This document shows positions 5,222-27,596 of a stretch of 64,000 bases of DNA, one piece after another. The notes under the pieces were generated by a model. The model was not told the origin of the DNA and made no database searches. It worked only from the letters and a program-made list of their open reading frames with translations. Both the position numbers and the translations under genes were made by a program. Source of the stretch: Betaproteobacteria bacterium (GTDB lineage: Bacteria > Pseudomonadota > Gammaproteobacteria > Burkholderiales > SG8-39); NCBI GenBank assembly GCA_947476535.1, contig CANJRC010000008.1, positions 845 to 64,844 on the forward strand. The letters are read 5' to 3'. The first letter of the stretch is position 1; each line of letters opens with the position of its first letter.

Positions 5222-5243
5222 CGGCCTGCCGCGTGCTTCGACG

Positions 5244-5993
5244 TCAGGGCAATTCGGGACGAAGGTAGCCATCCGCCAGGCGCAGCACGCGATTGGCGCT
5301 GGCGGCAAGGCCGGGCTCGTGGGTCACGATGATGAAGCTGGTGCCGCGACGGCGGTTCAAGTCCAGCATGAGTTCATATACCTGCGCCGCGGTCTCGCGA
5401 TCGAGGTTACCGGTGGGCTCGTCGGCAAGCACGCAGGCGGGTTCCGTCACCAGTGCCCGGGCCAGCGCGGCGCGCTGGCGCTCGCCGCCGGACAACTCCC
5501 CCGGCGTGTGCTCGAGACGCTCTCCCAGCCCCACTTCGTGCAGGATGGCCGCGGACGCAGCATATGCTGCGTCCCGCGGCATGCGCCGGATGAGCAGTGG
5601 CATGGCCACATTCTCCAATGCCGTGAACTCGACCAGCAGGTGATGGAACTGGTACACGAAGCCGAGCGAGCGATTGCGAAGGTCTCCCTGCTCTGCCTCC
5701 GACAGCGAATCCATTCGCCGACCCAGCACGGTCACCTCGCCGCCGCTGGGCGCATCCAGCCCGCCCAGCAGGTGGAGCAGCGTGCTTTTTCCTGAACCGG
5801 ATGCCCCGACAATGGCTACCAACTCGCCTTTGGCCACGGAAAAATCCACGCCCCGGAGCACGTGGATCTGTGCGCTGCCCTGCGCGTAGGCCTTGCACAG
5901 GCCACGGCTTTCCAGCACCGGCGTCGCTGCACTTTCCGCGCTTTCCGCGCTTTCCGTACGGTTTGCCGCGACATTGCCCATGGCCTCACTCAT
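5244..5993 (-). CDS. lolD: Lipoprotein-releasing ABC transporter ATP-binding subunit
   Basis: Walker [39 protein letters not shown]; adjacent to lolC/E. Confidence 0.95.
5932..5956. repeat. 9-bp tandem repeat (CTTTCCGCG) in the lolD N-terminus, encoding ESAESAES
   Basis: ctttccgcg ctttccgcg ctttccg read directly. Confidence 0.8.
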
Positions 5994-10713: not shown

Positions 10714-11733
10714 TTACTGGGGTTCTACGCCTGCCGCCCGCAGGGCCGCTGGCCAGTAGGCGTATTGCTTGGTGAGGAACTCCCCGAATTCACGTGACGT
10801 TCCGCCTTTTACGGAAACGCCATTGCCGGCAAGGCGCTCCCTGGTCTGGGCGTCGTCAAGGACTTTTGCGACGAGCGCATTAAGCCTGTCGACAAATGCA
10901 ACCGGCGTTCCCTTCGGCGCAAGCACCCCCCACCAGGAACCCGCATCCATGATGGACAAATCGACACCCGCCTCCTTGAACGTCGGCACCTCGGGCAGGA
11001 CCGCCGCCCGCGCGGCACCGGTCACGGCCAGCGCTCGCAATTGGCCTGAGAGGATCTGGGCACGGACCACCGTTGCAGAGGCGAAGGTCAATGGCACATG
11101 GCCGCCGACCACATCGGCCAGCGCCGGAGCAGCCCCCTTGTATGGAACCTCGACCATCTTTACACCAGTGCTCTGAAGCAGCGCGACGACCGCGAGATAG
11201 GGAGTACCCGCGCCTGCATGCGCAATGCTGATCGAGCCGGGCTTCGCAGCAGCAAGCGAAATCAGTTCCTTGACCGATGTGGCCGGCAGCGCAGGATGGG
11301 CGACGAGAACCAGCGGCGCCGAGCCGACAAAGGCGATCGGAACCAGGTCCGATTTCGGATCGTAGGCCAGGTTCTTGACCAGGGCGGGGCCAGTGGGCAG
11401 GCCCATATCTCCCAGCAACAGCGTGTATCCGTCGGGCTTTGCCTGCGCGACCAGACGTGTTCCGATGGTGCTGCCAGCACCGCCACGATTGTCGACAAGA
11501 ATCTGCTGCTGGATAAGCTCCGTGAGCTTCGACGCGATGATCCGCGCGACTGAATCTGTCGCCCCACCCGCCGGGTAGGACACCACCAGGGTGATCGGGC
11601 GGGCCGGATAGTCCTCCGCGGGAAAAACCGCTCCTGAAAGCGACCACAACAGGGCAGCGGCCCCGGCCAGCGCGACGCTCCGCCTGTCCATGCGCCCATC
11701 CAACTTCCCTTTCAGCCATTTAACGCACTTCAT
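10714..11733 (-). CDS. Bug/TctC tripartite tricarboxylate transporter substrate-binding protein
   Basis: YPARPITLVVSYPAGGATD, DNRGGAG, PDGYTLL, VPYKGAAPA, PEVPTFKEAG; AAGGAG RBS. Confidence 0.92.
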   Translation of the reverse strand: MKCVKWLKGKLDGRMDRRSVALAGAAALLWSLSGAVFPAEDYPARPITLVVSYPAGGATDSVARIIASKLTELIQQQILVDNRGGAGSTIGTRLVAQAKPDGYTLLLGDMGLPTGPALVKNLAYDPKSDLVPIAFVGSAPLVLVAHPALPATSVKELISLAAAKPGSISIAHAGAGTPYLAVVALLQSTGVKMVEVPYKGAAPALADVVGGHVPLTFASATVVRAQILSGQLRALAVTGAARAAVLPEVPTFKEAGVDLSIMDAGSWWGVLAPKGTPVAFVDRLNALVAKVLDDAQTRERLAGNGVSVKGGTSREFGEFLTKQYAYWPAALRAAGVEPQ

Positions 11734-11844: not shown

Positions 11845-12585
11845 CTACTCCTTCGCCGCCATCGGGAACCTCAACAATAGGGCTTCGAGTCCTATCTCAT
11901 CCGCCATCACTTCAATGGCGTCTCCAGCACTAACCCACATCAGTGAGTGCGTTGGAAAACTGTCGCGCCCCGTCACAAGGCAGCCATTGGCGACAAATAT
12001 GTACATCCCGCCGGACTCCGCGGTATCCGGGGTGGGTACCGACATGCCGGCACCCAGGCGCAATACGAAGGCCGCCAACCCGTCGGACTGCGCCTCGAAC
12101 AAGGGTTCAAGGCTGGACTGGTCCCGCGCAGCCCTGACGGGCTCGATACACAGGCTGACGTTGGCAACGGTGTATTGGCGCCTCTTGCCCGGCAGTACCC
12201 GTTGGCGGGATCCTGGTTCATCGCTATAGATAATCCGGCTGTCCTGTCGAGGACGCAGGGTCAGGTAGGAGAAGCCGGTGTTCCCGGCAGCGACGGGGCC
12301 ATAGGCGGAGTGATGATCCGCATAATGCACGCCAAGCTTCGTGATTTCGTGACGCCCGAGACGACCGCAACCGTCGAGAAAAACCTGAAATTGGTCTACT
12401 TCATGAAAATGCGGTTTGGTGACAGTGTCGGCCCCCATGTCGACGCGAAACGCCAATGGCGGCCCGTCTGTCGACGTCACGCCAAATGTCCCGAGATAAT
12501 TCGTGCGCCAGGACGGTCCGGCAATTGCACCCTGGATCCGCGCGCGCCGCTTCGCGACCTCTGCTGCCGAGACTGAAAGAATCAT
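11845..12585 (-). CDS. Hypothetical cupin-like protein
   Basis: PHFHEVDQFQVFLDGCG resembles cupin motif 1; HYADHHSAYGP follows. Confidence 0.6.
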   Translation of the reverse strand: MILSVSAAEVAKRRARIQGAIAGPSWRTNYLGTFGVTSTDGPPLAFRVDMGADTVTKPHFHEVDQFQVFLDGCGRLGRHEITKLGVHYADHHSAYGPVAAGNTGFSYLTLRPRQDSRIIYSDEPGSRQRVLPGKRRQYTVANVSLCIEPVRAARDQSSLEPLFEAQSDGLAAFVLRLGAGMSVPTPDTAESGGMYIFVANGCLVTGRDSFPTHSLMWVSAGDAIEVMADEIGLEALLLRFPMAAKE

Positions 12586-12630: not shown

Positions 12631-13809
12631 CTATTGTCCCGGAACAGTCGCCCTGGGAGCGAGCAGATCGGGCGTGATGTCGGATATCCGGCCGACCCCG
12701 CACAAATGCATGGTGCGGCGGAGTTCCTCCTCGAGGATAGACAGTGCGCGCGCCGCTCCCGCATCCCGCCCCGCGAAGGCTCCAAACAGCGTGGCACGGC
12801 CGATCAGCACTGCCTGGGCGCCACACGCCAGCGCCTTGAACACGTCTGCACCGTGCCTGATGCCTCCATCCAGCAATACCGCCAGACGGCCACCGGCGGC
12901 CGACACCACCCCCGGCAGCGCATCGATCGATGCGATGCAGCCGTCGAGTTGTCGGCCGCCGTGGTTCGAAACGACCACACCGTCACAGCCCAACCTGACC
13001 AGGGGCTCGACGTCGTCTCCCCGTATAACGCCCTTTACCAGCATCCTGCCCTTCCAGGCGTCACGGATCCCTTTCAGTCCGTCCCAATCAAATGCAGGAT
13101 CGTAGTTGCGGCCGACCGTTGAGGTGACCGCGACGACGTCGCCGCCCGGAACGAAGTCCGTCAGGTTGCCGAGTACCGGCTTACCGTGACGAATCATCGA
13201 CCAGGCCCAGGCAGGGCGGGAGGCAAAATCAGTCACGTTGCGCAGGGTGAACCGGAACGGATCCGCGAAATCGTTGCGCAGGTCCCGCAAGCGCCGGCCG
13301 CCAACCGGCAGGTCCACCGTGACGATCAAACATTCATAGCCAGCATCCTGCGCGCGCTGGATGAGGCTGTGTGTGAAGTCTCGCTGCTTGAACATGTAGC
13401 ACTGGAACCAGAGCCTCCCGCCGACCTGCCGCGCCATCTCCTCAATCGAGGGCGTTGCGGAGGTCGCCAACGAGTAAGGTATCCCGAACTGACGCGCTGC
13501 CTTAGCGATCGCGCAATCGGCTCCGTGCCAGCCCACCCCGGCGTGACCGGTCGGTGCGATCGCAATCGGCATTTCCACGCTCTTGCCGAAAATGTTCGTC
13601 TGCAGGTCCACTTTCGACGCTCCGCTGAGGATCTTAGGCATCAGGCGGATACGCGCAAAAGCAGCGACGTTATCGCGCAGCGTCAGCTCGCGCTCAGAGC
13701 CCCCGTCGAACACGTCAAACACGGCCCGTGGCAGGCGGCGTCGGGCAAGCCCACGCAGGTCTTCGATGCAGTACGCTCTGTCCAGGGATCGGGGCGCGTA
13801 CGAACTCAT
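12631..13809 (-). CDS. FMN-dependent alpha-hydroxy acid dehydrogenase/oxidase
   Basis: PIAIAPTG, LWFQCY, LIVTVDLP, VKGV, VVSNHGGRQLDG, DGGIRHGADVFKALACGA. Confidence 0.92.
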   Translation of the reverse strand: MSSYAPRSLDRAYCIEDLRGLARRRLPRAVFDVFDGGSERELTLRDNVAAFARIRLMPKILSGASKVDLQTNIFGKSVEMPIAIAPTGHAGVGWHGADCAIAKAARQFGIPYSLATSATPSIEEMARQVGGRLWFQCYMFKQRDFTHSLIQRAQDAGYECLIVTVDLPVGGRRLRDLRNDFADPFRFTLRNVTDFASRPAWAWSMIRHGKPVLGNLTDFVPGGDVVAVTSTVGRNYDPAFDWDGLKGIRDAWKGRMLVKGVIRGDDVEPLVRLGCDGVVVSNHGGRQLDGCIASIDALPGVVSAAGGRLAVLLDGGIRHGADVFKALACGAQAVLIGRATLFGAFAGRDAGAARALSILEEELRRTMHLCGVGRISDITPDLLAPRATVPGQ

Positions 13810-13847: not shown

Positions 13848-14861
13848 CTATTCGGGCTGGACACCGGCGGTCTTCAGCATGCGCGGCCAGTAATCGTACT
13901 GTCCCTCCATGAGACGGGTGAATTCATCGACACTGCTTCCCACCACGGATATGCCTCCCGCTGCATAGCGTTGCCTTACATCAGCATCACGTAGCGTCTC
14001 GTTGACAATGCCGTTCAGTTTCTGGATCACATCTCTTGGCGTTGCGGCCGGCACCATCAGGCCCCACCAAATGCCGGCATCCAGATTAGGCAAGTCGATG
14101 CCACTCTCCTTGAAGGTCGGTACATCGGGCAGGATCGCCGCTCGCTTGAGCCCAGTCATGGCAAGCGCGCGGACCTTGCCGGCCTTGGAGTGCTCGACGA
14201 CTGCATTGCTGATCTGGAACCCGACATGCACCTGGCCACCGATCACATCGGTTAGTGCCGGCCCCGCCCCTTTGTAGGGAACATAAACCATGTTTGTATG
14301 TGTTTCCTGCGCCAGCGCTATCATCGCCAAATAGGACATCCCGCTGCCAGGGTGCGCAAAATTGATCTGCCCCGGCTTGGACTTGGCAAGGGCAACCAGC
14401 TCCTGTACGTTCTTTGCAGGCACGGAAGGATGAGCAACCAATGTCAGCGGCGCAGTGACGACCCATACCACGGGGGCAAAATCTCGCTTCGCATCGAAAC
14501 TGGGATTCTTGAACAGCGCTGGCGTGGTCGGCAGGCTGGGGTCCGCCCAGAGCACGGTATAACCGTCCGCTGCCGCTCTGGCCACTGTTGCGGTGCCGAT
14601 TGTTCCTCCCGCACCGGCCCGGTTGTCCACAATGACTGGACGTCCCACAACATCGCCCATCTTTTGGGCCAGGATCCGTGACGCAGCGTCGCCACCACCG
14701 CCGGCGGGATAGGGCACCACAATGGTGATTTGCCTGCTCGGATAACTCTGTGCCGTGGCCACACCCGCGCCGCAGGCCAGACCGAATCCGGCGATCGACG
14801 CCGCAACGGCGAGAAAAATACTTCTCAACTTCAGGCCACTAACATTAGATCTTGTTCGCAC
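13848..14861 (-). CDS. Bug/TctC substrate-binding protein
   Basis: Signal peptide, YPSRQITIVVPYPAGG, DNRAGAGG, VPYKGAGPA, PDVPTFKESG. Confidence 0.92.
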   Translation of the reverse strand: MRTRSNVSGLKLRSIFLAVAASIAGFGLACGAGVATAQSYPSRQITIVVPYPAGGGGDAASRILAQKMGDVVGRPVIVDNRAGAGGTIGTATVARAAADGYTVLWADPSLPTTPALFKNPSFDAKRDFAPVVWVVTAPLTLVAHPSVPAKNVQELVALAKSKPGQINFAHPGSGMSYLAMIALAQETHTNMVYVPYKGAGPALTDVIGGQVHVGFQISNAVVEHSKAGKVRALAMTGLKRAAILPDVPTFKESGIDLPNLDAGIWWGLMVPAATPRDVIQKLNGIVNETLRDADVRQRYAAGGISVVGSSVDEFTRLMEGQYDYWPRMLKTAGVQPE

Positions 14862-15029: not shown

Positions 15030-16283
15030 TCAACGCGACGCAGACACCGCATCACGCGCCTTCAGTGCCTCTCGTACCGTTCGCGGCACCAGGGCTACCG
15101 TGGCCAGTGGTTTCATCGTTGGGTCCGTACTGCGAGTCGCTTTCTTATAAATTTCAAAAAATACCTGACCCACTGATGTTTCCATCCAGAACCAGTGCTC
15201 AATTTCAGCTGGAGAATGCCGGCCAGGCTGAACAGATTTTGCCTCGTAGTAGTACGCCTTTAATTCATCGGTCGCCAGCTTCAATGCGGCAGCAGCACCA
15301 ACATCAGGCCGATAGGAAGCCAGCTCCTCCTCACTCAATGAAGAGACCAGGAACTCCCCGATTGCCTGCGGTGACAATCCGGTCGCCCCTAGTGTCGTTC
15401 GTCCGCGGTGCCTGACCGATAGGTCATGCCACACCTGTAGCTGCGCGATTTCATCGGAGAGCCGCTCGGCAAGCGTGCCTTCGGACCGCAAGCGTGGAAA
15501 CGTGACGGGGCAGGACAGCCCTTCGGGCTCTGCACCCAGATCCTCATACGGAGCATCCTCGGGAAAATCCTCAAGGATGGGCCCAGCCTCCCGCTCCAGC
15601 AGCGACAGCGCCGCTGTCATCACCTTGCGCTGGAATTCAGAATCGTTTGGCACCCCCAGCGGGCGTCCGAGCATGAACGGCACCCACAGCGCTCGCGGCG
15701 GCTTGATCGCAGCCGTGTGCTCTCGTATCAGGCTGATGGAAACCGTGGGAATTCCCTCTTCTTCCAGGTAGTGCCCAAGTGCGCTCACGGCGCACGTACA
15801 GCGCGGTCAAACAGGTGTCAGCAACACCCCGTCCACATCATCCTCCTTGAGCAGGGCTGCCAGTTCGCGTGCCTTGCCCTCGTAGAGCGTGATTGGTGCG
15901 ATGGCGCCCATGAAAGAGTAGTGAAATGCCCCGACCGCACCCACCACTTTCTCCCGGACCAGTTCCCGCAACCGTTCCAGCGGAAACACGACATTCCAGT
16001 CCGATTGGAAGCCGGAGCGGTCATAGTTGACGGAAACATGGCTCATGATCACGTCTGCAGCGTATGTGCCCTCCGGAATGACCCGGTAATCCATACCCGC
16101 CCCCCCGGAGTCGAACGGGCGGTCGCCGCGCACGCACAGTCCTGCAGTCGTCACGATAGCCACGCGCCGTTGCGCCAGCGGCTTGCCGCGGACCCAGGGT
16201 TGGCCGGGAAGCGGCTGTAGCGTCGGTACTTTGCTGAGATGACTCTCCTGTTCCTCCGGCAACAGATCGGACAAGCGAACCAT
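15030..16283 (-). CDS. GrdB/PrdB-family (glycine/betaine/sarcosine/D-proline reductase component B-like) selenoprotein, Sec at the in-frame TGA 15809-15807; 417 aa
   Basis: The 158-aa and 252-aa ORFs are in one frame, joined as GVLLTPV-TGA-PRCTCAVSALGHYLEEEGIPTVSI (UxxC). Family motifs lie on both sides (RVAIVTTAG, DWNVVFPLERLREL, HYSFMG; EEEGIPTV, PPRALWVPFMLGRPLG). Confidence 0.88.
15779..15806 (-). promoter_or_regulatory. Candidate bacterial SECIS element
   Basis: mRNA reads UGA-CCGCGCUGUAC-GUGCGC-CGUGA-GCGCAC: an 11-nt spacer, then a 6-bp stem with a GU-containing loop. Confidence 0.7.
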
Positions 16284-16308
16284 AGGGTCCTCTCCTCTTT
16301 CGACTGGG

Positions 16309-18012
16309 CTAAGCTTCAGCTAAATGGTGCGTCAATGCCTCAGGATCGATGGTGACACCATAGTCGGTTCGCGCCGCTTCGATCGACACCCGGCCATCGC
16401 GCACATCGGCGATTACACGCTCGGACTCGCGCTCCCTGGGATCACCATAACCACCACCGCCGGGAAGTTCGAGCCGCACGCGGTCACCCGATTTCAGCCG
16501 GCTGGTACTGCCGTGAGCCAGGGGGTTACCGTTCAGTTCGAGGGATGTACCGCGGCCGCTTTTCCCACCGAGAATGCCATTCACGGGGCATAGAGAATCT
16601 TCGCCGCGCGGCGACCCGCGCGCGACCAGAATAACGTCACCAATGGGCGCAATCGACCCCTCGGCTACCTTGAACTCCACAACCTGACCCAACCCGCCGC
16701 GACGGCGCCCCGGCCCACCGGAATCGCACAACAGTTCCTTTCGCAGGTACACCACCGCGCTATCGTTCTCGGTGATTTCGATCGGTATGTTGGCAACATT
16801 GTGCGGATAGCACAGGCAGTCTTTACCGTCGATATTCGCCGAGGCACCGTAGCCGCCCTTGTCCGATTGCAGCGCGAGGAAATCCTGCCCGTCGTAACGA
16901 CGGCCGCGACAAACCACACTGCTGGCCGGCGCCGAACCACAAACGGCAATCACCCGATCCGCCAAAACGCCGGAGAGCGCATCGAACACCATTTCGGGAA
17001 GATAGTGCGAGACGACCGAGCGCCCCCAGGTTGGCGCCGGACGGGTGCAGTTCAGGACACTACCTGGCGGGGCAAAGAATTCGAACGACGCGATGCAACC
17101 ATCATTGTTCGGTATATGGGGGTCCAACAATTGCTTCAATGCATAGTAGGCATAGCCCTTGGCATAATTGATCGGCGAATTCACTGCCGCGGCGATCTCG
17201 GGCGATGAGCCGGTAAAGTCCAGGCGGATGCGATCCTGGCCGACCTCGATGGCCAGCACGAGCGGGATCGGATGGGGGTGGCGGCCGATGGGCGGCAGCA
17301 CAAGGGACGAGCGGTAGGTGCCGGCAGGAATGCTCCGTATTGCAGAGCGCATGCTTTCTTCGGAACGGGCAATGATCCGGTCGGCGATCCCTTCGATCGT
17401 CTCGCCCGGATAATCGTCAAGAATCTTGCCAAGGCTACGCTCGCAGATGTGGAGCGCGGACCGTTGAGCGTGAAGGTCACCATTAACCTTGTGTGGCGTG
17501 CGCACATTCCTCAACAGGAGCTGGACAACGCCATCGTTCTCCTTGCCCGCATCGAGATACTTGAGCGGAGGGATCTGGATACCTTCTTCATACACGTCGC
17601 GCGACTCGATATCCGACATTCGCCCGCCGATGTCGGAATGATGCACGACGCAGACCGCAAACCCGACCAATGCACCACGGTGAAAAAGCGGCCGTGCCAG
17701 GGTGACATCAAGGAGGTGTCCGGTAGCCATCCACGGGTCATTGGTTATGTAGACATCCCCCGGATTCATCGCGCCACTGAAGATGCGAATGAGATCCTGG
17801 ACTAGCGGCGTGATCACACCGATGAATCCGCTGGTCGTATGAGTTGAGTGCCCCAGCAACCGCCCCTTGCGATCGAAGACCCCCACGCAATAGTCGTGAT
17901 ACTCGCGCACATTGGGCGAATAGCACGAGCGCACCAATCCATTGGCTGCTTCGTCTACCGTCGCGATGAGCCGGTTCCAGAGAACGCTGAGACGTATGCT
18001 TTCGACACTCAT
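16309..18012 (-). CDS. Hydantoinase B/5-oxoprolinase family subunit
   Basis: SPNVREYHDYC, PGDVYITNDPWMATGHLLD, HHSDIGG, YEEGIQIPP, DSGGPGRRRGGLG, PGGGGYGDP. Confidence 0.93.
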   Translation of the reverse strand: MSVESIRLSVLWNRLIATVDEAANGLVRSCYSPNVREYHDYCVGVFDRKGRLLGHSTHTTSGFIGVITPLVQDLIRIFSGAMNPGDVYITNDPWMATGHLLDVTLARPLFHRGALVGFAVCVVHHSDIGGRMSDIESRDVYEEGIQIPPLKYLDAGKENDGVVQLLLRNVRTPHKVNGDLHAQRSALHICERSLGKILDDYPGETIEGIADRIIARSEESMRSAIRSIPAGTYRSSLVLPPIGRHPHPIPLVLAIEVGQDRIRLDFTGSSPEIAAAVNSPINYAKGYAYYALKQLLDPHIPNNDGCIASFEFFAPPGSVLNCTRPAPTWGRSVVSHYLPEMVFDALSGVLADRVIAVCGSAPASSVVCRGRRYDGQDFLALQSDKGGYGASANIDGKDCLCYPHNVANIPIEITENDSAVVYLRKELLCDSGGPGRRRGGLGQVVEFKVAEGSIAPIGDVILVARGSPRGEDSLCPVNGILGGKSGRGTSLELNGNPLAHGSTSRLKSGDRVRLELPGGGGYGDPRERESERVIADVRDGRVSIEAARTDYGVTIDPEALTHHLAEA

Positions 18013-18076
18013 AGACTGCCTTCCCGAGTAAAGTAACGCCCGCGGCCGGCGCAGCCCGTGACCCTGCGCTGCGAGT

Positions 18077-20137
18077 TCACGTCGTCAGGCCCACGCTGAT
18101 GATCAGCGCCGACGAAGCGTCGACCACGACGCGATCCCCCGGCCAGATCACGGTGGTCGATTCCCGCTCCTCGATGACTGCGGGACCGACAACCTCATCT
18201 CCCGCTGCGAGCGCACCGCGCTGTATCACTGCCACTGCCTCGCTCTTCTCCCCGAACCGGATAGTTCGCTGGCTCCTTGGCAGCGCATGCTCCGGCTGGA
18301 TGGCGGACCATTTCTGCTCGCATCCGGATTCTGCTGCCACCGCGACCCGAAGCGTCGATATCTCGAGCGGCCCGCCATCACCGCGCCGACCATAACGCCG
18401 CTCATACTCATCGCCAAATCCATCAAGCGCGGCGGAAGCAGTAGCCGCACCTTCCCAATTCCCGGAAATCTCGACCTCCACCGCGGACTCCTGACCGACG
18501 TGCCGGATTTCCACGTACCGTTCGATGACCATCTGGCCCGTAATTCCGCTTCTGGCACGGGTTTCGACCTCGATCTCACCAAACATCCGCTCGATCTCGG
18601 GAATCGCTACGCCCGAAAACGGGATCCTTATGGCACGACTGATTTCAAATGAGCGACGCGCCACCAGCAGTCCAAATGCGGACATGACCCCAGGCATCGG
18701 CGGTACGACCACGGTAGGGACTTCAAGCCGGCGAGCCAGAGCCACCGCATGCACGGGCCCTGCGCCACCGGTAGCAATCAGGGCACAGCGAGAGGGATCC
18801 TGACCATGCTCAGCCAAGTGAAGCCGCGCGGCCGAGGCCATGGTCTCAGTGACGAGATCGAGGATGCCCCATGCCGCTGCCTCGATGGAAATCCCCAGCG
18901 GCGCGGCCACATGGATGTCGATGGCACAGGCCGCGGCTTCACCGTCAAGCACAAATTCGCCACCGAGAAAGGAGGCTGGGCTGATGAACCCGAGAACCAC
19001 GTTCGCATCGGTGACTGTCGGGCGGGTTCCCCCACGGCCATAGCAGGCCGGCCCCGGCTCCGAACCTGCGCTCCGCGGGCCCACGGCGAGCAGGCCCAAC
19101 CCGTCGATGCCCGCGATGCTGCCGCCGCCGGCCCCTATCTCGAGGAGGTCGTACACTTGCACGGCGATCGGATAGCCGCTTCCCTTCCGGTAACGATGCA
19201 CGCGAGCGACTTCGAAGTCGCGAGTCCGCCCCACCTTGCCGTCCCGCACGAGACAGAGTTTTGCTGTAGTACCGCCCATGTCGAACGCCAGCACGCGATC
19301 GAGCCCCAACACGTTTCCGTAGTACCGGGCCGCCTCCACGCCGGCCGCAGGACCGGATTCGACCAACTGAATCGGATAGTCCTTGGCGATGTCGATCGGC
19401 GATATGCCGCCATTCGACAGCATCATCGACAGGGATTTGGCGTACGCGCGCTCATCGAGGCGCTCCTGGAGCCGGTCGATATATCCCGAAATGATCGGCT
19501 TGATGTAGGCGTCCAGGACAGTCGTGGACAGGCGTTCATACTCCCTCGGCCTGGAGACTACCTGATGTGAAAGCGAAACCTGCATGTCGGGTGCGACCGT
19601 CCTGATGACGTCCCGGGCACGCAACTCGTTGGCGGGATTTCTATAGGAGTGCAGGAACATCACAGCAATGGCACGGACTCCCTGGCGCTGGAAATCGCGG
19701 ACAATCCCGGCCAGTTCGTCTTCGTCAAGCGGAATACTCGTACCGTCAACGAAGGTCCGCTCGTGAACGGTGCGGCGCAACGATCGGGGAATGATCGGCT
19801 GCGGAAACTGCGGCTCAAGGTCGTAGACGTAATAGCGGGATTCACGGCCCATCTCCAGAAGGTCGCGAAAGCCCTCGGTCGTGACCAGGCCAGTCGCAGC
19901 TCCCTTGCCCTCGATGATGGCGTTCGTCACGAGGGTGGTGGCATGGACGATGTCGGCAGAGAACGAGGCCCCACCCAAGTCCCGCGCCTCCATCCGCCCG
20001 ATGCCGGTGAGGATCGCCTCTTCCGGATGGCGCGGCGTGGTCAGGCACTTGTCGACTGTGATCGCACCGGTGCCCTCATCGATCACCACGAAATCGGTAA
20101 ACGTCCCGCCTATGTCAACGCCAAGTCGAAGTGTCAT
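18077..20137 (-). CDS. Hydantoinase A/5-oxoprolinase family ATP-binding subunit
   Basis: GVDIGGTFTD, HATTLVTNA, TTEGFRD, ESGPAAG, DMGGTTAK, IGAGGGSIA, GPRSAGSEPGPACYG, PTVTDAN. Start placed at MTLRLG. Confidence 0.93.
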   Translation of the reverse strand: MTLRLGVDIGGTFTDFVVIDEGTGAITVDKCLTTPRHPEEAILTGIGRMEARDLGGASFSADIVHATTLVTNAIIEGKGAATGLVTTEGFRDLLEMGRESRYYVYDLEPQFPQPIIPRSLRRTVHERTFVDGTSIPLDEDELAGIVRDFQRQGVRAIAVMFLHSYRNPANELRARDVIRTVAPDMQVSLSHQVVSRPREYERLSTTVLDAYIKPIISGYIDRLQERLDERAYAKSLSMMLSNGGISPIDIAKDYPIQLVESGPAAGVEAARYYGNVLGLDRVLAFDMGGTTAKLCLVRDGKVGRTRDFEVARVHRYRKGSGYPIAVQVYDLLEIGAGGGSIAGIDGLGLLAVGPRSAGSEPGPACYGRGGTRPTVTDANVVLGFISPASFLGGEFVLDGEAAACAIDIHVAAPLGISIEAAAWGILDLVTETMASAARLHLAEHGQDPSRCALIATGGAGPVHAVALARRLEVPTVVVPPMPGVMSAFGLLVARRSFEISRAIRIPFSGVAIPEIERMFGEIEVETRARSGITGQMVIERYVEIRHVGQESAVEVEISGNWEGAATASAALDGFGDEYERRYGRRGDGGPLEISTLRVAVAAESGCEQKWSAIQPEHALPRSQRTIRFGEKSEAVAVIQRGALAAGDEVVGPAVIEERESTTVIWPGDRVVVDASSALIISVGLTT

Positions 20138-20340
20138 CTGGCCAATCTTTGTCTTCAAAGCACACGCAAAAGGGTCGACGCGCTGCATCGTGTTCGATTA
20201 CCCGTCTTCGCGACGGTAGTCGGGGAGGCTGTCCGCAGAAAGGGGCGAGGTGCCCGTCAGCGCAGGCTCAGACCCATTACAGCGTCAACACCGTCACGAG
20301 AGGACTGGGGCAGCCGGCTTCTACGGAGTATGCTGGCCTG

Positions 20341-21516
20341 TCACACGGGTGGCCGCGTTGTCGCGCGCGGCACTACGCCACTGAAGCGCTTCTCGACTGT
20401 CTCTCTCGCCGCCTCTTTTCTCTGCGAACCATAATCTTCGGCGTTCGCCCGCATGTAATCAAGCGATTCCTGCCGCTCCCACATACGCCCCTCGAACTTC
20501 GGCCGCACGTAGCGCGCGAAGAGTTCGTAGCTGCGTTTGGTCGCCTCGAACTTGGCCCAGTTGATACCGAACATCAGTAGCGTACCGAAACCACCCGTCT
20601 TCTCCCAGTATTTCTCAAGGAATTCTATGGCGTCATCAGGGGTTCCGATGACGATCATGTCGCGGCTCATCACCTCCTCGAGGCTACCCTTGCCGAGGCG
20701 ACCGCCGTCCGGATACAGCGCGGCCATGTAGTCCTGGTACTTGTCGAACCCCCATTTGCAGTTATTGAGCGCCTCCTCGCGGGTCTCCGCGAGGTGAATC
20801 TGGGTCACCACCCGAAGGTCCTGACGATCCATGGTGCGGCCATGCTCCGCTGCCGTCTTGCACGCGACATCCCAATTGACGCCGAGGACGTCGTAGCCGG
20901 CGAACAGCGAGGCGGTGACGCAGAGCATGCCCAAGCCATAGCGACCGGCGAGATAGGCGCCGTTCGGTGTCACGGCGCTCGCCACGGCGACGTGGGGCCG
21001 CGGCCGCGTGTACGGCAGGAGGTGTAGCCGGGCATCCCTGAGCGTGATCCATTCGCTTTCATGGTTAACTGTCTCCCCGGCGAGCAGGCGCAGGATGATC
21101 TCGAGCGACTCTTCCATCCGCTCGCGCGATTTCTTGGGGGGAACGCCGAGCATCATGGCGTCAAGGATGAGGAGGCCAGGTCCGCAGCCAAGCATGGCGC
21201 GGCCGCGTGTCAGGTGGTCCAGTTGCACGAAGCGCTGCGCGACCATGAACGGATTGTGGTACGGCAGCGAGACCACGCCAGTGCCAAGTTTGATGCGCTT
21301 GGTCCGGGCAGCCGCCGTGGCAATGAAGAGCTCGGGGGACCCGATCAATTCGTAGCCACCGGAGTGATGCTCTCCGTACCAGACCTCGTCGTAGCCGAGA
21401 TGTTCGGCCCACTCGGTGAGTTCGAGGTCGCGCTCCATGCAGAGCGTCGGGTCCTCGTCAATCGGATGGTGCGGCGGGATAAAGATACCGGTCCTGAGCT
21501 TTCGAAACTCGTTCAT
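20341..21516 (-). CDS. Luciferase-like flavin-dependent monooxygenase (limonene 1,2-monooxygenase-like)
   Basis: GIFIPPHHP, GYDEVWYGEHHSGGYELIGSPELFIA, LGTGVVSLPYHNP, LDHLTRGR, GGFG. Start placed at MNEFRK. Confidence 0.88.
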   Translation of the reverse strand: MNEFRKLRTGIFIPPHHPIDEDPTLCMERDLELTEWAEHLGYDEVWYGEHHSGGYELIGSPELFIATAAARTKRIKLGTGVVSLPYHNPFMVAQRFVQLDHLTRGRAMLGCGPGLLILDAMMLGVPPKKSRERMEESLEIILRLLAGETVNHESEWITLRDARLHLLPYTRPRPHVAVASAVTPNGAYLAGRYGLGMLCVTASLFAGYDVLGVNWDVACKTAAEHGRTMDRQDLRVVTQIHLAETREEALNNCKWGFDKYQDYMAALYPDGGRLGKGSLEEVMSRDMIVIGTPDDAIEFLEKYWEKTGGFGTLLMFGINWAKFEATKRSYELFARYVRPKFEGRMWERQESLDYMRANAEDYGSQRKEAARETVEKRFSGVVPRATTRPPV

Positions 21517-21842: not shown

Positions 21843-22424
21843 CTAAATTCCCGCGGACTCACCCCGACTCCAGCCGTAGATCTCAACGAGTCCGTACAGT
21901 CCGTTCTGGTAGAACGGCTCGTTGTTGAGATAGGTATCGAAGGCACTCCGATTTTCGACCTCGATAGCCACTGCCGATCCACGCCACGACTGCTGGTCCG
22001 TCGCCAGTATCGGCCCGCGAGCAACAAAATGGTCAGGGTCAAACTTCCGAAAATATGCCGCGTGGGCCGCATGCAAGGCTTCGCGTCTCTGCGGCGCATC
22101 AGGAGTGCCCAGTCCCCACATGAAAAATCCCTGGCGCCCTGGGCGTGGCGGGATATTCACCTGCATCCGATCCAGGCGCGAGCGCCATGGGTGACAGATC
22201 GTATCAGCGGAGCCTGACAGCGGGTCCTCCAGGACGAAGGCCGACATATCCGAAGCCGCATCGTGTCTTGTGAAATACACATATCCCGCAGCCCCTCCAC
22301 CATCCGATGTTAGCGGCCCGAAGGCGATGAGTTGGTCCTTCACCTTGCGCATGAAAGCCCGATGCTCTTCGACTATCGATCCGCTCCAACCGCCCGCGCG
22401 CTTCTGCATGACCAGAAATGACAT
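21843..22424 (-). CDS. YciI-like protein (tandem domains)
   Basis: Two repeats of the H...GPL/GPI...G-S...F...DP/EPF pattern (EHRAF...FGPLTSDGG; RREALHAAHAAYF...RGPILATD...NEPFYQNGL). Confidence 0.75.
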   Translation of the reverse strand: MSFLVMQKRAGGWSGSIVEEHRAFMRKVKDQLIAFGPLTSDGGGAAGYVYFTRHDAASDMSAFVLEDPLSGSADTICHPWRSRLDRMQVNIPPRPGRQGFFMWGLGTPDAPQRREALHAAHAAYFRKFDPDHFVARGPILATDQQSWRGSAVAIEVENRSAFDTYLNNEPFYQNGLYGLVEIYGWSRGESAGI

Positions 22425-22580: not shown

Positions 22581-23510
22581 TTGAACAAACTGCAGGCAAT
22601 TAACGTTTTCATTCAAGTGGTGGATAGCGGTGGCTTGTCGGCCGCCGCTATCAAGGTGGGGATCTCATCTTCCGCGGTCACCAAATGCCTTTCGCGGCTT
22701 GAGGAAGACCTCGGCACACTGCTCGTGAATCGATCAACCAGGCGTGTATCGATCACCGAGAATGGACGAAAATATTACGCCCTCTGCAAGCAAATCATTG
22801 CCGACCTGGAACAGGCCGACCTGTCCATGCGACAACAAAGTGACACCGCCTCTGGACTGGTGAGGATGGTCGTGCCTGTTTCGTTTGGTCACGTTACATT
22901 GATTCCCAATCTGCCAGAGTTCTACAAGCGGTATCCGGACATCGTTCTCGATATTCATTTCAGCGACTATGCCGTGGACCTCATCCAAGGGAGCTTTGAT
23001 CTCGCCGTCCGTACGGGCGAGTTGGCGGACTCAGCGCTGGTCCGAAGGATCTTGACCAAGGGCCCGATGATGACGGTCGCTATGCCCGCCTATCTTGCGC
23101 GCCATGGCACGCCGGAATCGCCGGAAGACCTTTCACGCCACAACTGCATCCAGGGTCGACACGGAGGTCCTCGCTGGACATTCCAGCGTGACGGCAGGCT
23201 CTTTGATGTCCCCGTCAGCGGGAACCTGCAAGTGCATAGCGGCGAGGCCGTCCGGGTTGCCGCCTGTAGCGGGATTGGAATCGCCCGCTCGACCTGGTGG
23301 CTGTTCCGCCAGGAACTGCAGACCGGCGTACTGGTTCCAATACTGCAGGCCTTTGCGCCCGAGGAAATACCACTTTCGGTGGTCTATCCAGACAAGCGAC
23401 ATATGTCCAAGAAGATCGTCGCGATGATTGAGTTCCTGATCGAAATCACCAAGGTCAAGTCCCTCAAGGGCAAGGGCGGCACATCGCAGGGGCGTGCCGC
23501 TGCCCGTTGA
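22581..23510 (+). CDS. LysR-family transcriptional regulator
   Basis: N-terminal HTH (FIQVVDSGGLSAAA...SAVTKCLSRLEEDLG..LVNRSTR), DLAVRTG; divergent from the yciI-like gene. Confidence 0.95.
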   Translation: MNKLQAINVFIQVVDSGGLSAAAIKVGISSSAVTKCLSRLEEDLGTLLVNRSTRRVSITENGRKYYALCKQIIADLEQADLSMRQQSDTASGLVRMVVPVSFGHVTLIPNLPEFYKRYPDIVLDIHFSDYAVDLIQGSFDLAVRTGELADSALVRRILTKGPMMTVAMPAYLARHGTPESPEDLSRHNCIQGRHGGPRWTFQRDGRLFDVPVSGNLQVHSGEAVRVAACSGIGIARSTWWLFRQELQTGVLVPILQAFAPEEIPLSVVYPDKRHMSKKIVAMIEFLIEITKVKSLKGKGGTSQGRAAAR

Positions 23511-23644: not shown

Positions 23645-24613
23645 TTACTCCACCTTGATATTGGCCGACGCGGCGACCGCCCGATACGTCGCAAGGGTGC
23701 TTGCGATCAGGGCTGAGAACTCCTCCGAGGTTGAACCCACCGGGGTCAACGCGGTTTTCTGGAAGAAGTCGACGGCCTTGGGCTGCTTGAGGGCTTTTGC
23801 GACAGCTTGCTGAATGGTGGCGACCAGGGCTGGTGGCATGCTCTTCGGCCCCCAAATTCCGTACCAACTCGTCGCTTCGAACGACGGATACCCCGCTTCC
23901 GCGACAGTCATTACATTCGGTAACTGCTCCATGCGCTTCAATCCTGTCACACCAATTGCCTTGATCTTGCCGGCCAGAACTTGCGGAATGGCGGTGGTAG
24001 GAGGGGCCAATACGGCGTCAATCTCGCCCGCGAGGAGGCCGACCATTTGTGGGCCAGCACCCTTGTAAGGAACGATCAGGGCCTTGGTGCCAATCGTATT
24101 GATGAAAATCGCAGAGGCGAAATGGTCACCGCTGCCAAACTGTGAAATGCCCCAGTTCAGCTCTTTCGTCCGGGCAAATCCTGCAAGCTCCTTCGCGTTG
24201 TTTGCCGTTATCCGGTGGCTGACCGCCATGATGTAGGCCGTTTCACCGACAAGGGTAATGGGCGTGAGGTCCGTCGTGATGTCGTAGGACGCTTTCGGAT
24301 TGGCTACCTGGTTGGTCACCGCAATGGAGGCGGTGAACAGAAGCGTGTGGCCGTCGGGCTCCGCCCGCTTGACGACGTCTATACCGATTGCACCGGAGCC
24401 GCCGACAACGTTCTCAACTACAACGGGCCTGCCAAGAATCTCCTGCAGGCCCAGGAAGATCACTCGCCCCGTGGAGTCGCTGCCACCTCCGGGCGGCTGG
24501 TTCACAATGATCCTCACTGGCTTGGATGGATAGGATTGGGCGATTGCAGCATTTCCAGCAACCAATCCCGCACCAACCAGGCCTGCAACAACAACCGATC
24601 TGAGTCCAATCAC
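23645..24613 (-). CDS. Bug/TctC substrate-binding protein
   Basis: YPSKPVRIIVNQPPGG, VPYKGAGP, SWYGIWGP; GTG start at 24613 chosen from a GAAGGGG RBS. Confidence 0.9.
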   Translation of the reverse strand: MIGLRSVVVAGLVGAGLVAGNAAIAQSYPSKPVRIIVNQPPGGGSDSTGRVIFLGLQEILGRPVVVENVVGGSGAIGIDVVKRAEPDGHTLLFTASIAVTNQVANPKASYDITTDLTPITLVGETAYIMAVSHRITANNAKELAGFARTKELNWGISQFGSGDHFASAIFINTIGTKALIVPYKGAGPQMVGLLAGEIDAVLAPPTTAIPQVLAGKIKAIGVTGLKRMEQLPNVMTVAEAGYPSFEATSWYGIWGPKSMPPALVATIQQAVAKALKQPKAVDFFQKTALTPVGSTSEEFSALIASTLATYRAVAASANIKVE

Positions 24614-24774
24614 GATATCCCCTTCACAAATGCCATCGCTGGCTGTTCGAGTCAAGATGCGTCTTGATCACTCCACCCCGTGTCGCCAATTCCGTCACCA
24701 GCTTTCACAGCCGAAGCATTCGACATTGTGGTTGGGCACCGGCTTCCGGACCCGGCCGGCCACCGAGGCAATCT

Positions 24775-26418
24775 TCACATCAACCTTTTGTCATCCTCGA
24801 GGATCATCGTCGCGCCTTTTTCCGCGATCATCATCACTGTGGCGTTGGGATTGGCTGCGACGATTCGTGGCATCACCGAGGCGTCGATCACGCGCAGGCC
24901 CCCAACGCCGCGAACGCGAAGCCGCGGTTCCACGACGGCATCCTCGCCCACCCCCATTCGACAACTCCCGGCCGCGTGGTGGAAGGATTTCCCGCTCTCG
25001 CGGCAAAAGGCAATGATTTCTTCGTCGCTCACGCAGTCTGCGCCGGGGGCCCGCTCCCCCTTCACGTAGGGAATCATCGCGGGCATCGACATGAGCCGGC
25101 GCACCAGCCGGACAGCCTCGACTAATGTCTTCCTGTCACGATCCGATTGGAAGAAATTGAACCGGATCTCCGGTGGCACCGCGCTGTCCGCGCTCCTGCT
25201 TCGAACGCTCCCGCGACTTTCCGGATACTGCAGCGAATTGAGGATGCTGAAGCCGGAATAGGCATCCAGGCCCATGCGGTGACGATGGGCCTGCAGCCCC
25301 GTCGCCGAACGCGCCCAAAGTGCCAGTTTGAGTCGAACCTCGGACTCGGGAACTTGCGAGTCGGTTTGCACGGCCGCCCCGACGAAGCTTGCATTCGTGG
25401 TCATCAATCCACGGCGGAACAACAGGTACTCCAGTCCCATGAGGATGCGACGGAACGGGTTGTTGACCATGTCGTTAATGGTGATCGGCCGCGTGCACTC
25501 GTAGGCCAGCGCCGTCCCGAAGTGGTCCTGCAGGTTTGCGCCGACCCCGGGCAGATCGGCGATAACCGGGATGCCGAGCGACTTGAGCAATTCTGCCGGT
25601 CCGACACCGGACAACTGAAGCAGCTGAGGCGAATTGAACGCGCCGGCACACAGGATCACCTCTTTGCGCGCCCGCACCGTCCGTAGCTGGCTACCTTGGC
25701 GAAAGACCACGCCGTCTGCATTGCCGTGGCGGAGCGCAATCCGGGTGGCATGCGCGTTGGTCAGAACGCAGAGATTGCCCCGCTTGCGCGCCGGTTTCAG
25801 GTAAGCATCTGCTGCGCTCCAGCGACGGCCCTTCCAGATCGTCGACTGGTTGTATCCGAAGCCATCGCTCCTCTCCCCGTTGCAGTCATGATTTTCCGGA
25901 AACCCGGCCTGCAGCCCCGCCTGGACGAATGCGTCGCACAGCTCATGACGCGGGTTGTTGGACACCTTCAGGGGGCCACCCGCGCCGTGATACTCGCTCG
26001 GCCCCATCTCATTGCCTTCCCCCTTCTTGAAGAAAGGCAGCACGTCCCGGAAACCCCAGCCGGTATTCCCGAGCCGCTCCCAGTCGTCGTAGTCTTTCGG
26101 CTTGCCCCTCACATAGGCACTGCCGTTGATCGATCCGGTCCCGCCCAGGACCTTTCCGCGAGGCTGGTACCCGCGCGCACCATTCAGTTCGGGCTCCGGC
26201 TCGCCGTCGTACATCCAGTTGTATCTGGGATCATCATGTAGCTTCCCGTATCCCAGTGGTACGCGGATCCAGAAGCTATCGTCCTCCCCACCGGACTCGA
26301 TCAGTGCAACCTGGTGTTGGCCCGACTCGCTCAAGCGCGCGGCGACTACACATCCGGCGGATCCTGCCCCGACGACGACGTAGTCAAACTTCTGATCCTC
26401 AATCGGTCGGCGCCCCAT
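24775..26418 (-). CDS. GMC oxidoreductase (choline dehydrogenase-like)
   Basis: VVGAGSAGCV, RGKVLGGTGSING, AGAFNSPQLLQLSG, VGANLQDH, HAAGSCRMG, LRVIDASVMP. Confidence 0.93.
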   Translation of the reverse strand: MGRRPIEDQKFDYVVVGAGSAGCVVAARLSESGQHQVALIESGGEDDSFWIRVPLGYGKLHDDPRYNWMYDGEPEPELNGARGYQPRGKVLGGTGSINGSAYVRGKPKDYDDWERLGNTGWGFRDVLPFFKKGEGNEMGPSEYHGAGGPLKVSNNPRHELCDAFVQAGLQAGFPENHDCNGERSDGFGYNQSTIWKGRRWSAADAYLKPARKRGNLCVLTNAHATRIALRHGNADGVVFRQGSQLRTVRARKEVILCAGAFNSPQLLQLSGVGPAELLKSLGIPVIADLPGVGANLQDHFGTALAYECTRPITINDMVNNPFRRILMGLEYLLFRRGLMTTNASFVGAAVQTDSQVPESEVRLKLALWARSATGLQAHRHRMGLDAYSGFSILNSLQYPESRGSVRSRSADSAVPPEIRFNFFQSDRDRKTLVEAVRLVRRLMSMPAMIPYVKGERAPGADCVSDEEIIAFCRESGKSFHHAAGSCRMGVGEDAVVEPRLRVRGVGGLRVIDASVMPRIVAANPNATVMMIAEKGATMILEDDKRLM

Positions 26419-26432
26419 CGCGCTGGGCCTTG

Positions 26433-27503
26433 CTATCGACCGAGATAGAGAAGTTCGCGAGGCACTTCGGCCACATTTCCCACGCCGGACAAGCGCATCG
26501 CACGCGACAGTTCCGTCCTAAGGATGGCGAGAGCCCGCTCCACACCCTCCTGACCGCCCGCCGTCAACGGCCAAATCAGTCCGCGCCCAATCAGAACGGC
26601 GCGCGCCCCTGCCGCAAGTGCCTTCAGCACGTCTTCGCCGCTGCGAACGCCGCCATCCATCAGCACTTCAATCTGCGAGCCAACCGCATCGACAACGTCG
26701 ACCAGCGTATCGAGCGTGCCACGCAGGCTATGGAGCGCGTGCCCCCCGTGATTGGAGACAATAAGACCGTTAAGACCGTGTTCGACGCATAGCTTGGCAT
26801 CGGCCACGCTCTGGATTCCCTTGACCAGGATCGGCAGCGATGTGTACTTGCGCAACCGCAGGATGTCCTTCCAGCCCACGTGGCGGTGAACCAGTTCAAA
26901 GCAATCGCCCGATGCCGGCACCTTCCCAGGAATAGTTTCGGTCAAGTTTCGCCACGGGATTGTTCGCGACCCACGATAGAAGCGGGCGAGCCGCTCCGAT
27001 GAACTGATCCCGGCATTATCTACCGTAACGAGGAGCGCCTTGAAGCCGGCTGCTTCCGCGCGCTGCACGAGCAGCTTGTTCAGCTCATCATCGGCAAGAT
27101 AATACAGTTGCATCCACTTGGGGCCGGATGATGCATCAGCGACCTCTTCGATCGTGAAATGTGCGCCGGTCGGCAGCGTGAATACAGTACCCGCCGCCGC
27201 AGCGGCACGGGACGATCCGATTTCCCCGTCGGAATGAAAGCGGATCTGGCCACCGACTGCCCCGAGAAGAACGGGCAATTCCACTCGGGTGCCCACCACC
27301 GTTGTCGATAGGGTCTGCTCGCCGATCCCGGAGAGAACCCGGGGAACCAGCCTTGTCCTCTCGAAGGCCTGCCGATTCGCAATGGCCGCCTGATGCTCAT
27401 GACCGGGACCGCCAAACCAAGCGGTGAAAAGATGCGGAGGTAGGTTGGCGATCGCCTGGCGTTCGAAATCACCAATACTTGAAAAATTCTCGCTATTCAA
27501 CAC
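26433..27503 (-). CDS. FMN-dependent alpha-hydroxy acid oxidase family protein (divergent active site)
   Basis: WMQLY, LVTVD, VKGI, VSNHGGH, DGGVRSGEDVLKALAAGA; GTG start with GGAGG RBS. Confidence 0.85.
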   Translation of the reverse strand: MLNSENFSSIGDFERQAIANLPPHLFTAWFGGPGHEHQAAIANRQAFERTRLVPRVLSGIGEQTLSTTVVGTRVELPVLLGAVGGQIRFHSDGEIGSSRAAAAAGTVFTLPTGAHFTIEEVADASSGPKWMQLYYLADDELNKLLVQRAEAAGFKALLVTVDNAGISSSERLARFYRGSRTIPWRNLTETIPGKVPASGDCFELVHRHVGWKDILRLRKYTSLPILVKGIQSVADAKLCVEHGLNGLIVSNHGGHALHSLRGTLDTLVDVVDAVGSQIEVLMDGGVRSGEDVLKALAAGARAVLIGRGLIWPLTAGGQEGVERALAILRTELSRAMRLSGVGNVAEVPRELLYLGR

Positions 27504-27596
27504 ACCGCCTCCTCGGAAATACAACCTGGGGGAATACAGCGGCCGATACGACCACGGCACTCCCGATCCTGAATCACGAAGCCACGTCCCGCAGCC

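Follow-up and report, generated by a model that had tools for sequence, protein, structure and literature searches.

The window analysed here is a stretch of 64,000 nucleotides (positions 845 to 64,844, forward strand) of contig CANJRC010000008.1 from GCA_947476535.1, the metagenome-assembled genome (MAG) of a betaproteobacterium placed by GTDB in the Burkholderiales; this source genome (G000) comprises 4.1 Mb in 204 contigs and is 87% complete. On the minus strand of the window, at positions 15030–16283, lies a gene with a single in-frame TGA codon, which directly follows the two genes of a hydantoinase/oxoprolinase, and a first-pass annotation of this DNA had seen in the arrangement a candidate pathway in which the ATP-dependent hydantoinase opens a cyclic amide and the selenoprotein acts on the product. 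Our analysis favours, as the likelier account, a real selenoprotein from a widespread, long, orphan branch of the PrdB/GrdB superfamily that would function as a self-contained selenol/thiol reductase, its position behind the hydantoinase genes being local and recent and not a property of the family.

Evidence for selenocysteine decoding

The gene and its principal features, in window coordinates, are as follows.

15030–16283, minus strand: selenoprotein gene of 417 codons plus stop, with an in-frame TGA at 15807–15809
15807–15809, minus strand: the in-frame TGA, predicted selenocysteine (Sec) 159 in the motif V-U-P-R-C-T-C
15798–15800, minus strand: Cys162, the invariant U-x-x-C partner of Sec159 (alignments A1, A2, A4 and A5)
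15779–15795, minus strand: hairpin resembling a selenocysteine insertion sequence (SECIS), with a stem of 6–7 bp and an invariant GU in the loop, beginning 11 nt after the TGA
15510–15512, minus strand: Cys258, nearly invariant, in the interdomain loop (at least 90% conserved in alignment A2)

Relatives of the gene were collected in three scans with one genome per species, which confirmed at least 563, at least 585 and at least 579 relatives, respectively. The sample used below consists of the best 80 of each scan, amounting to 211 distinct loci including the window, and is biased towards the three lead sequences. Fourteen identifiers standing for repeat contigs, 4 from the second scan and 10 from the third (L105, L128, L135, L136, L197, L202, L207, L209, L211, L218, L222, L234, L237 and L239), were removed before counting. 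The FastTree tree holds 209 proteins, two of the 211 rows (each under 300 aa) having been omitted. Final neighbour counts were obtained by tblastn with fixed queries, and calls of open reading frames (ORFs) filtered by GC3 were used for the reading of genes. One unpublished genome (G046, the host of L065) accounts for a single locus of the 211 and for a single row in each of the alignments A2, A3 and A6; it is also among the 50 genomes of the PF09338 search and, in the first density sample, contributes 4.5 of the 204 Mb and 9 of the 215 Hydantoinase_B matches (search and sample are described below). The conclusions are independent of it.

At the alignment column of Sec159, 198 of the 211 loci have TGA and the other 13 a cysteine codon (TGC or TGT). 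The 13 Cys forms (V-C-P-N-C-T/S-R; L174–L178, L181, L182, L184–L188 and L193), which include representatives from Limnohabitans, SAR86, Luminiphilus, Halioglobus and Parvibaculaceae, group near the Cys-form lead sequence, and thus Sec and Cys forms follow clades. In the window itself the TGA is covered without any difference by contigs from two other public runs (X5 and X7) and, judged from these assemblies, is not an error.

The SECIS-like hairpin is present in the minimum-free-energy structure. When it is laid over 75 distinct sequences, 86.9% of the cells are paired and 23 cells show changes on both sides, with compensatory changes at two pairs (in 5 and 16 rows). Its covariation score of 0.129, against 0.049 in shuffled alignments, was reached by none of 500 shuffles and by no slid control. 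A sub-threshold Rfam match at the gene, to the KDPG-aldolase RNA (E 0.14), was taken as chance.

The genome encodes selA, selB and selD, each scoring over its profile cut-off, with selA and selB on a contig other than that of the window. The selD match (G000:C1:84723-85649, locus L009) lies inside an open frame of 759 aa, as compared with the 311 positions of the profile, and the surplus length may reflect a fusion or a frame that stays open far upstream. Taken together, the codon column, the covarying hairpin and the selA, selB and selD genes of the genome show, by comparison of sequences, that 15030–16283 encodes a real selenoprotein of 417 residues, in which UGA159 would be read as Sec with the help of the hairpin; the first-pass identification of the gene as a selenoprotein therefore stands.

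Domain architecture and absence of canonical partners

Sequence profile searches with the predicted protein recovered a match of residues 33–230 to nearly the whole of the PrdB model TIGR04483 (93.9 bits; profile positions 24–219 of 238), and one of residues 34–156 to the C-terminal part of PF07355 (positions 221–345; 33.7 bits against a gathering score of 22), which places the protein in the PrdB/GrdB superfamily. Residues 232–417 matched no family in Pfam or NCBIfam. An AlphaFold model built on 24 sequences (predicted local distance difference test, pLDDT, 83.1; predicted template modelling score, pTM, 0.82) divides the protein into an α/β domain at about residues 33–240, a flexible loop at 249–260 and a helical domain at 271–416. 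Within the Rossmann-like α/β domain U159 directly precedes a predicted helix (160–175); the peroxiredoxin-like (Prx-like), thioredoxin-like (Trx-like) and AhpD-like selenoproteins, too, carry their Sec/Cys redox pair where a helix begins. The loop that holds Cys258 has a pLDDT below 50.

The second cysteine of the C-T-C triplet is variable among the relatives, so that the motif of the family is U-P-x-C. Invariant residues include U159, C162 and T163, along with a set of polar positions comprising D54, S84, N86, D88, R89, D95, N97, H121, Y122, R187, R197 and W200.

Searches for related structures gave little. Foldseek with the whole model found no match in the PDB at E ≤ 0.001; the VIA wide search with the whole model gave a best Z of 8.3 (root-mean-square deviation 3.5 over 143 aligned residues) to Rossmann domains of the LacI and SDR types, covering residues 34–253 only and at noise level. 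The helical domain alone (pLDDT 92.0) gave an uninformative best E of 1.3 with Foldseek and best Z of 5.5 with VIA wide. A sequence search of the PDB returned a single chance-level match (E 0.073), so there is apparently no PrdB or GrdB structure near enough to be found. In comparison with the UxxC selenoproteins that resemble thiol oxidoreductases, the fold predicted for the window protein is not thioredoxin-like, the best structural matches being the generic Rossmann-like ones, with Z of at most 8.3 and at noise level.

The window protein thus resembles PrdB in its homology over residues 33–230 and in having its Sec in a UxxC motif, and differs from it in length (417 residues, where the profile has 238 positions), in the added helical domain, in the lack of a PrdA match in the genome and in its host, a Burkholderiales MAG of aerobic type as judged from the names of its relatives. 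With GrdB, GrdF and GrdH it shares the C-terminal region of PF07355 and a Sec in a Cys-rich motif; however, this homologous domain is N-terminal in the window protein and C-terminal in the GrdB-type profiles, and the motif is UxxCxC in the window gene and UxxC across its family, as against the UxxCxxC reported for GrdB in the relevant part of PMC13188914.

The first-pass annotation had noted that PrdA/GrdE, GrdA and thioredoxin genes are missing from the window and had proposed a genome-wide search for prdA/grdE. Profile searches bear out the former, and the latter finds no match to PF09338 (PrdA/GrdE) in the whole of the 87%-complete G000. PF04723 (GrdA) likewise has no match there, in a search that had no positive control and did not extend to GrdC/D. 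The thioredoxin family has nine matches in G000, none of them on the contig of the window. Among 50 host genomes of the long PrdB-like gene PF09338 was not found in 46; it was found in the other four (Desulfobacterales, Dehalococcoidia, SAR202 and one Desulfocapsa), so the search is able to detect the family. The description of the gene as a selenoprotein of the PrdB/GrdB superfamily without canonical partners accordingly holds, for the window genome as well as for the greater part of the sampled hosts.

The hydantoinase cluster of the window

The remaining genes of the region are as follows.

22581–23510, plus strand: LysR-type regulator, divergent from the cluster (PF03466, PF00126)
21843–22424, minus strand: YCII-domain ORF upstream of the LLM gene, its start probably later (PF03795, residues 107–185)
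20341–21516, minus strand: luciferase-like (LLM) oxidoreductase (PF00296, 171 bits)
18077–20188, minus strand: hydantoinase/oxoprolinase subunit A (PF05378, PF01968, PF19278)
16309–18012, minus strand: hydantoinase/oxoprolinase subunit B (PF02538, 446.8 bits)
16289–16297, minus strand: Shine-Dalgarno-like GAGGAGAGG, evident from the sequence itself, 5 nt upstream of the ATG at 16283
13848–14861, minus strand: Bug/TctC solute-binding protein (PF03401)
12631–13809, minus strand: flavin mononucleotide (FMN)-dependent α-hydroxy-acid dehydrogenase, LldD-like (PF01070, 420 bits)
11845–12585, minus strand: ORF of 246 aa of no named family (no Pfam or NCBIfam match)
10714–11733, minus strand: second Bug/TctC protein, the final gene of the run (PF03401)

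Nine co-directional genes thus extend from the YCII ORF to the second Bug gene, with the plus-strand LysR gene facing the run at one end and recJ, also on the plus strand, coming after the second Bug gene at the other. Pfam and NCBIfam searches agree with the gene order and families of the first-pass annotation save for its cupin, which is the 246-aa ORF: this lacks any Pfam family even at E ≤ 1 and has an 84%-identical copy in L020. The ATG of the LLM gene at 21516 is residue 51 within a longer ORF that begins with TTG, and an NCBIfam search with this protein gave no model at its cut-off; the FMN dehydrogenase scores 342 bits against NF008398, under the cut-off of 376.

The hydantoinase pair shows full-length matches to its Pfam families (287.8 bits for PF01968, and for PF02538 as listed), in keeping with membership of them. 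Its best NCBIfam models are those of caprolactamase α (NF050156, 478.9 bits) and β (NF050157, 241.5 bits); both scores are well under the equivalog cut-offs of 1000 bits, and an identification of the neighbours as the caprolactamase CapA/CapB was rejected. In 300 genomes of the order no orthologue of the window hydantoinase B was found, only paralogues that are at most 41% identical.

The stop codon of the hydantoinase B gene is separated by 25 nt from the ATG of the selenoprotein gene, and the Shine-Dalgarno-like element lies within this gap; both the gap and a ribosome-binding site of its own, as reported in the first pass, can be read directly. Because of the short gap and the shared strand, the selenoprotein gene is probably co-transcribed with the hydantoinase genes. 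A scan for promoters and terminators gave fewer sites than in shuffled sequence, none of which decides the operon question.

The hydantoinase cluster is an ordinary catabolic cluster. On the minus strand upstream of the LysR gene, at 23645–27560, there are a further Bug/TctC gene, a GMC oxidoreductase (24775–26418) and a second FMN-dependent dehydrogenase (26433–27560), making the region around the cluster a patchwork of catabolic genes; in L089 too, a GMC oxidoreductase precedes hydantoinase B.

Linkage of the selenoprotein gene to hydantoinases

Of the 211 loci, 12 have a homologue of hydantoinase A or B no more than 5 kb from the selenoprotein gene; the number falls to 9 at 2 kb and to 5 at 0.5 kb. 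The 12 are the window, L020, L048, L059, L089, L108, L116 (a weak case), L146, L198, L216, L225 and L232. Among the first 20 relatives (46–85% identity) the closest, L020 (85%), is alone in sharing the arrangement of the window with hydantoinase B upstream. In L089 a Hydantoinase_B gene (544 bits) is the direct neighbour on the same strand about 230 nt upstream, and in L146 a fused hydantoinase of 1220 aa is the direct same-strand neighbour about 110 nt downstream; the hydantoinase is convergent in L048 and L059 and divergent in L232. L102, which is 76% identical to L089, lacks such a neighbour. On the tree the 12 linked loci amount to 10 changes of state, so the linkage appears at the tips and fails to persist within clades. 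The hydantoinases concerned are different paralogs, 24–39% identical to those of the window, and occur in varied orientations.

The hosts of these genes are rich in such paralogs. G000 alone has 9 places with hydantoinase A, 11 with hydantoinase B and 144 with Bug/TctC, this last number accounting for the recurrence of Bug genes within 5 kb in 36 of the 211 loci. Hydantoinase_B has 215 matches in a first sample of 50 host genomes (204 Mb) and at least 484 in 50 further hosts (217.6 Mb; both sizes are sums of rounded figures). Some alphaproteobacterial hosts have at least 23 matches each, and since ten genomes of the second sample reach at least this number the expectation derived from the density in the 100 genomes is a lower bound: at least 2.65 loci within 0.5 kb, at least 3.4 within 2 kb and at least 4.8 within 5 kb. 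If the excess is counted as events (4, 7 and 10, respectively), P is 0.27, 0.058 and 0.025, in a test that was framed after the data had been seen. An enrichment of 4- to 6-fold, calculated from the density in the first 50 genomes, was dropped, as the second set proved at least twice as rich.

We read the association as being at chance level or at most two-fold. The linkage essentially does not recur beyond chance (at 5 kb, 12 of the 211 loci where chance alone would give at least 4.8), and a conserved pathway defined by it, as put forward in the first pass, is not supported, given that 199 of the 211 loci have no hydantoinase within 5 kb and that the tree requires 10 changes. Among publications judged by title and opening of the abstract, none was found that links the long PrdB-like family to hydantoinases; those retrieved treat other subjects, among them a GrdB-like protein of Synergistota, or are general surveys. 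From the route for an N-heterocycle proposed in the first pass, the coupling to the hydantoinase thus falls away as a conserved trait, while the recurrent neighbours described below agree better with the thiol redox chemistry that the first pass named as an alternative.

A more restricted form of the coupling is the strongest of the competing readings, albeit an unlikely one: here and in a few other lineages the selenoprotein would work with the ATP-dependent hydantoinase, which would open a lactam or cyclic amide, the product or a related N-heterocycle then being reduced or cleaved at Sec159. The short gap, common strand and separate ribosome-binding site in the window speak for it, as do the retention of the arrangement in L020, the direct same-strand neighbours in the two unrelated lineages of L089 and L146, the further copies within 5 kb in L048/L059, L108, L116, L198, L216/L225 and L232, and the counts of 9 loci within 2 kb and 12 within 5 kb set against their expectations. 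PrdB itself, moreover, acts on a five-membered N-heterocycle according to the relevant part of PMC13188914. Against this stand the 199 loci lacking the linkage, its 10 separate changes on the tree and its absence from L102; the partners are different paralogs in varied orientations, the hosts are rich in paralogs, and the test was chosen post hoc against an expectation that is only a lower bound.

Recurrent neighbours across the family

The one clearly non-random neighbour is selB, which lies within 5 kb in 16 of the 211 loci as against 0.51 expected, with 13 changes on the tree; selA is found within the same distance in 11. Other recurrent neighbours within 5 kb are genes for glutathione S-transferases (GST; 14 loci), CMD/AhpD-like proteins (12 loci) and pyridine-nucleotide disulfide oxidoreductases (11 loci, with one example fused to a VTT domain). 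TetR genes accompany 18 loci at up to 5 kb, every one of them on the strand of the selenoprotein gene and 17 upstream of it; 16 loci have one within 2 kb and 9 within 0.5 kb. Such an upstream TetR gene directly precedes the selenoprotein gene in several unrelated lineages (e.g. L042, L043, L077, L082, L083, L216, L225 and L233); no other arrangement was seen so regularly, and the regulator might give access to the inducer. No single partner occurs in more than about 9% of the loci, and neighbourhoods so varied fit an autonomous enzyme used in differing redox, detoxification or catabolic settings.

In L026 the PrdB-like gene heads a run with three selenoprotein genes beside selB. This selenoprotein island (L026:10001-15124) contains, besides the PrdB-like gene, an AhpD-like gene (C-S-Y-U), a Sec-free AhpD-like paralogue and a Prx-like gene (W-U-P-Y-C), and is followed by selB and selA on the opposite strand; runs resembling it were seen in L021, L025, L035 and L039. 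Adjoining Prx-like and AhpD-like genes are found in several genomes. Tandem PrdB-like copies also occur: in L098:10001-11823 a second N-terminal half begins about 150 nt past the first gene, and L114 and L115 (the same contigs as L207/L211) have another C-terminal half some 1.2 kb downstream.

The frequent adjacency of selA and selB would be explained if the protein served in the handling of selenium, for example by reducing or carrying it for SelD, and had no part in catabolism; the 13 tree changes behind the 16 selB loci, with selA in 11, lend this some appeal. Selenoprotein genes, however, are often grouped with the sel genes whose clients they are; the chemistry is independent of selenium in the protein, as the 13 Cys forms show, and selA and selB of G000 are on another contig. 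Together these points make such a role improbable.

Proposed mechanism

By analogy with PrdB/GrdB and with the chemistry of UxxC oxidoreductases (as treated in the relevant part of PMC13188914), the window protein is most likely a self-contained selenol/thiol reductase. Sec159 would attack an electrophilic atom of a small substrate as the nucleophile, and Cys162 would resolve the adduct as a selenenylsulfide, which cellular thiol systems would re-reduce, possibly by way of Cys258. Such a cycle would need neither a pyruvoyl partner (PrdA/GrdE) nor GrdA. In the lineage of the window the gene would have landed behind the hydantoinase A/B pair, in a catabolic cluster beside a LysR gene.

Several observations weigh against this account. 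A tRNA-Sec was not found in the 87%-complete G000 by ARAGORN or with RF01852, whose best hit scores 41.9 bits against a gathering score of 47. The invariant polar set points to a putative specific substrate pocket, as opposed to a general thiol oxidoreductase. The reductase activity is something that we infer, and the roles given to Cys162 and Cys258 have conservation and the predicted model as their whole basis. Adjacency to selB is expected of any principal selenoprotein gene and says little on the chemistry. Finally, a neighbouring hydantoinase turns up in some 10 lineages, with different paralogs involved, and the nominal 5-kb excess (10 events where at least 4.8 are expected; P = 0.025) means that some coupling is possible.

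A bolder proposal would make the long PrdB-like proteins a partner-independent class of selenoenzymes of aerobic bacteria, in which the helical domain and the Cys258 loop replace PrdA/GrdE and GrdA, and which was here recruited into a lactam-catabolic operon to cleave reductively the ring-opened product of the hydantoinase or a related N-heterocycle. We regard this combination as speculative, and distinctly less probable than the restricted coupling considered above.

Assignment to curated models and to the PrdB family of selenoprotein surveys

The window gene should not be filed as a D-proline or glycine reductase, because it fails the curated PrdB and GrdB models and is without their partners. 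Its 93.9 bits against the D-proline reductase model PrdB (TIGR04483) compare with an equivalog cut-off of 300, PF09338 being without a match in the 87%-complete genome; against that of glycine reductase GrdB (TIGR01917) it reaches 42.5 of a required 602.2 bits, with neither PF04723 nor PF09338 found; and the subfamily TIGR01918 (various_sel_PB) was likewise rejected at 48.5 bits against a cut-off of 65.45. It is conceivable that the gene is nevertheless a canonical subunit of a Stickland-type reductase, its pyruvoyl partner unrecognised or lying in the unassembled 13% of the genome, as the homology of its N-terminal domain to PrdB extends over almost the entire profile. This is very improbable in view of the extra domain of 185 residues, the score far below the PrdB cut-off, and the lack of PF09338 here and in 46 of 50 hosts in a search that does find the family in four.

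Gene callers split the gene, and 118 of 120 listed homologues are C-terminal fragments of 241–256 aa. A search of 1.84 billion representatives with the ORF downstream of the UGA brought up, at E ≤ 0.001, 1194 clusters formed at 50% identity. Of the 150 top-ranking representatives of these clusters, 149 are fragments of 149–281 aa that start just past the UGA; therefore Sec forms dominate the long PrdB-like family. That the locus might instead hold two separate ORFs or a pseudogene interrupted by a stop, as such calls would have it, has next to nothing left to recommend it: both halves are conserved in one frame across the 211 loci, some Cys forms are of full length (P0116, P0121 and the 13 loci), the hairpin covaries and the genome has selA, selB and selD.

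In surveys of selenoproteins one of the most abundant families goes by the name of 'proline reductase PrdB' (pfam07355, UxxC); the passages concerned count 42 Sec genes to 1 Cys gene in the Sargasso Sea in 2005 (PMC1088965) and 235 Sec against 110 Cys forms in the GOS survey of 2008 (PMC2398784), and put the family among the thiol-redox selenoproteins, abundant in aerobic aquatic bacteria (PMC1088965, PMC2398784). A 'proline reductase' is also recorded in Anaeromyxobacter and Geobacter in the corresponding part of PMC1794560. The window gene very probably belongs to the family of these surveys, to which it is likened here by description: pfam07355, the UxxC motif and Sec forms that outnumber Cys forms are common to both. 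The surveys name the family after D-proline reductase, and the passages that deal with it mention neither the extra C-terminal domain nor the missing PrdA nor the gene neighbourhoods. This name is contradicted by the architecture and the missing partners. The present analysis shows the protein to be an orphan of two domains that overwhelmingly uses Sec, and identifies its recurrent neighbours; these (sel genes, AhpD- and Prx-like selenoproteins, GST, disulfide reductase and TetR) offer a cleaner experimental start than the hydantoinase hypothesis.

Two more candidate Sec genes were recovered in G000, one Prx-like (WUPYC) and one Trx-like (WUSTC). The Prx-like ORF with its in-frame TGA is on the minus strand of contig C138 at about 4215–4640, and its C-terminal part is 62% identical to the Prx-like selenoprotein beside the PrdB-like gene in L026. 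The other is a thioredoxin-family match with one internal TGA on the minus strand of contig C156, at about 5100–5450; it has a hydrophobic N-terminus ahead of the W-U-S-T-C motif, and its product is possibly secreted.

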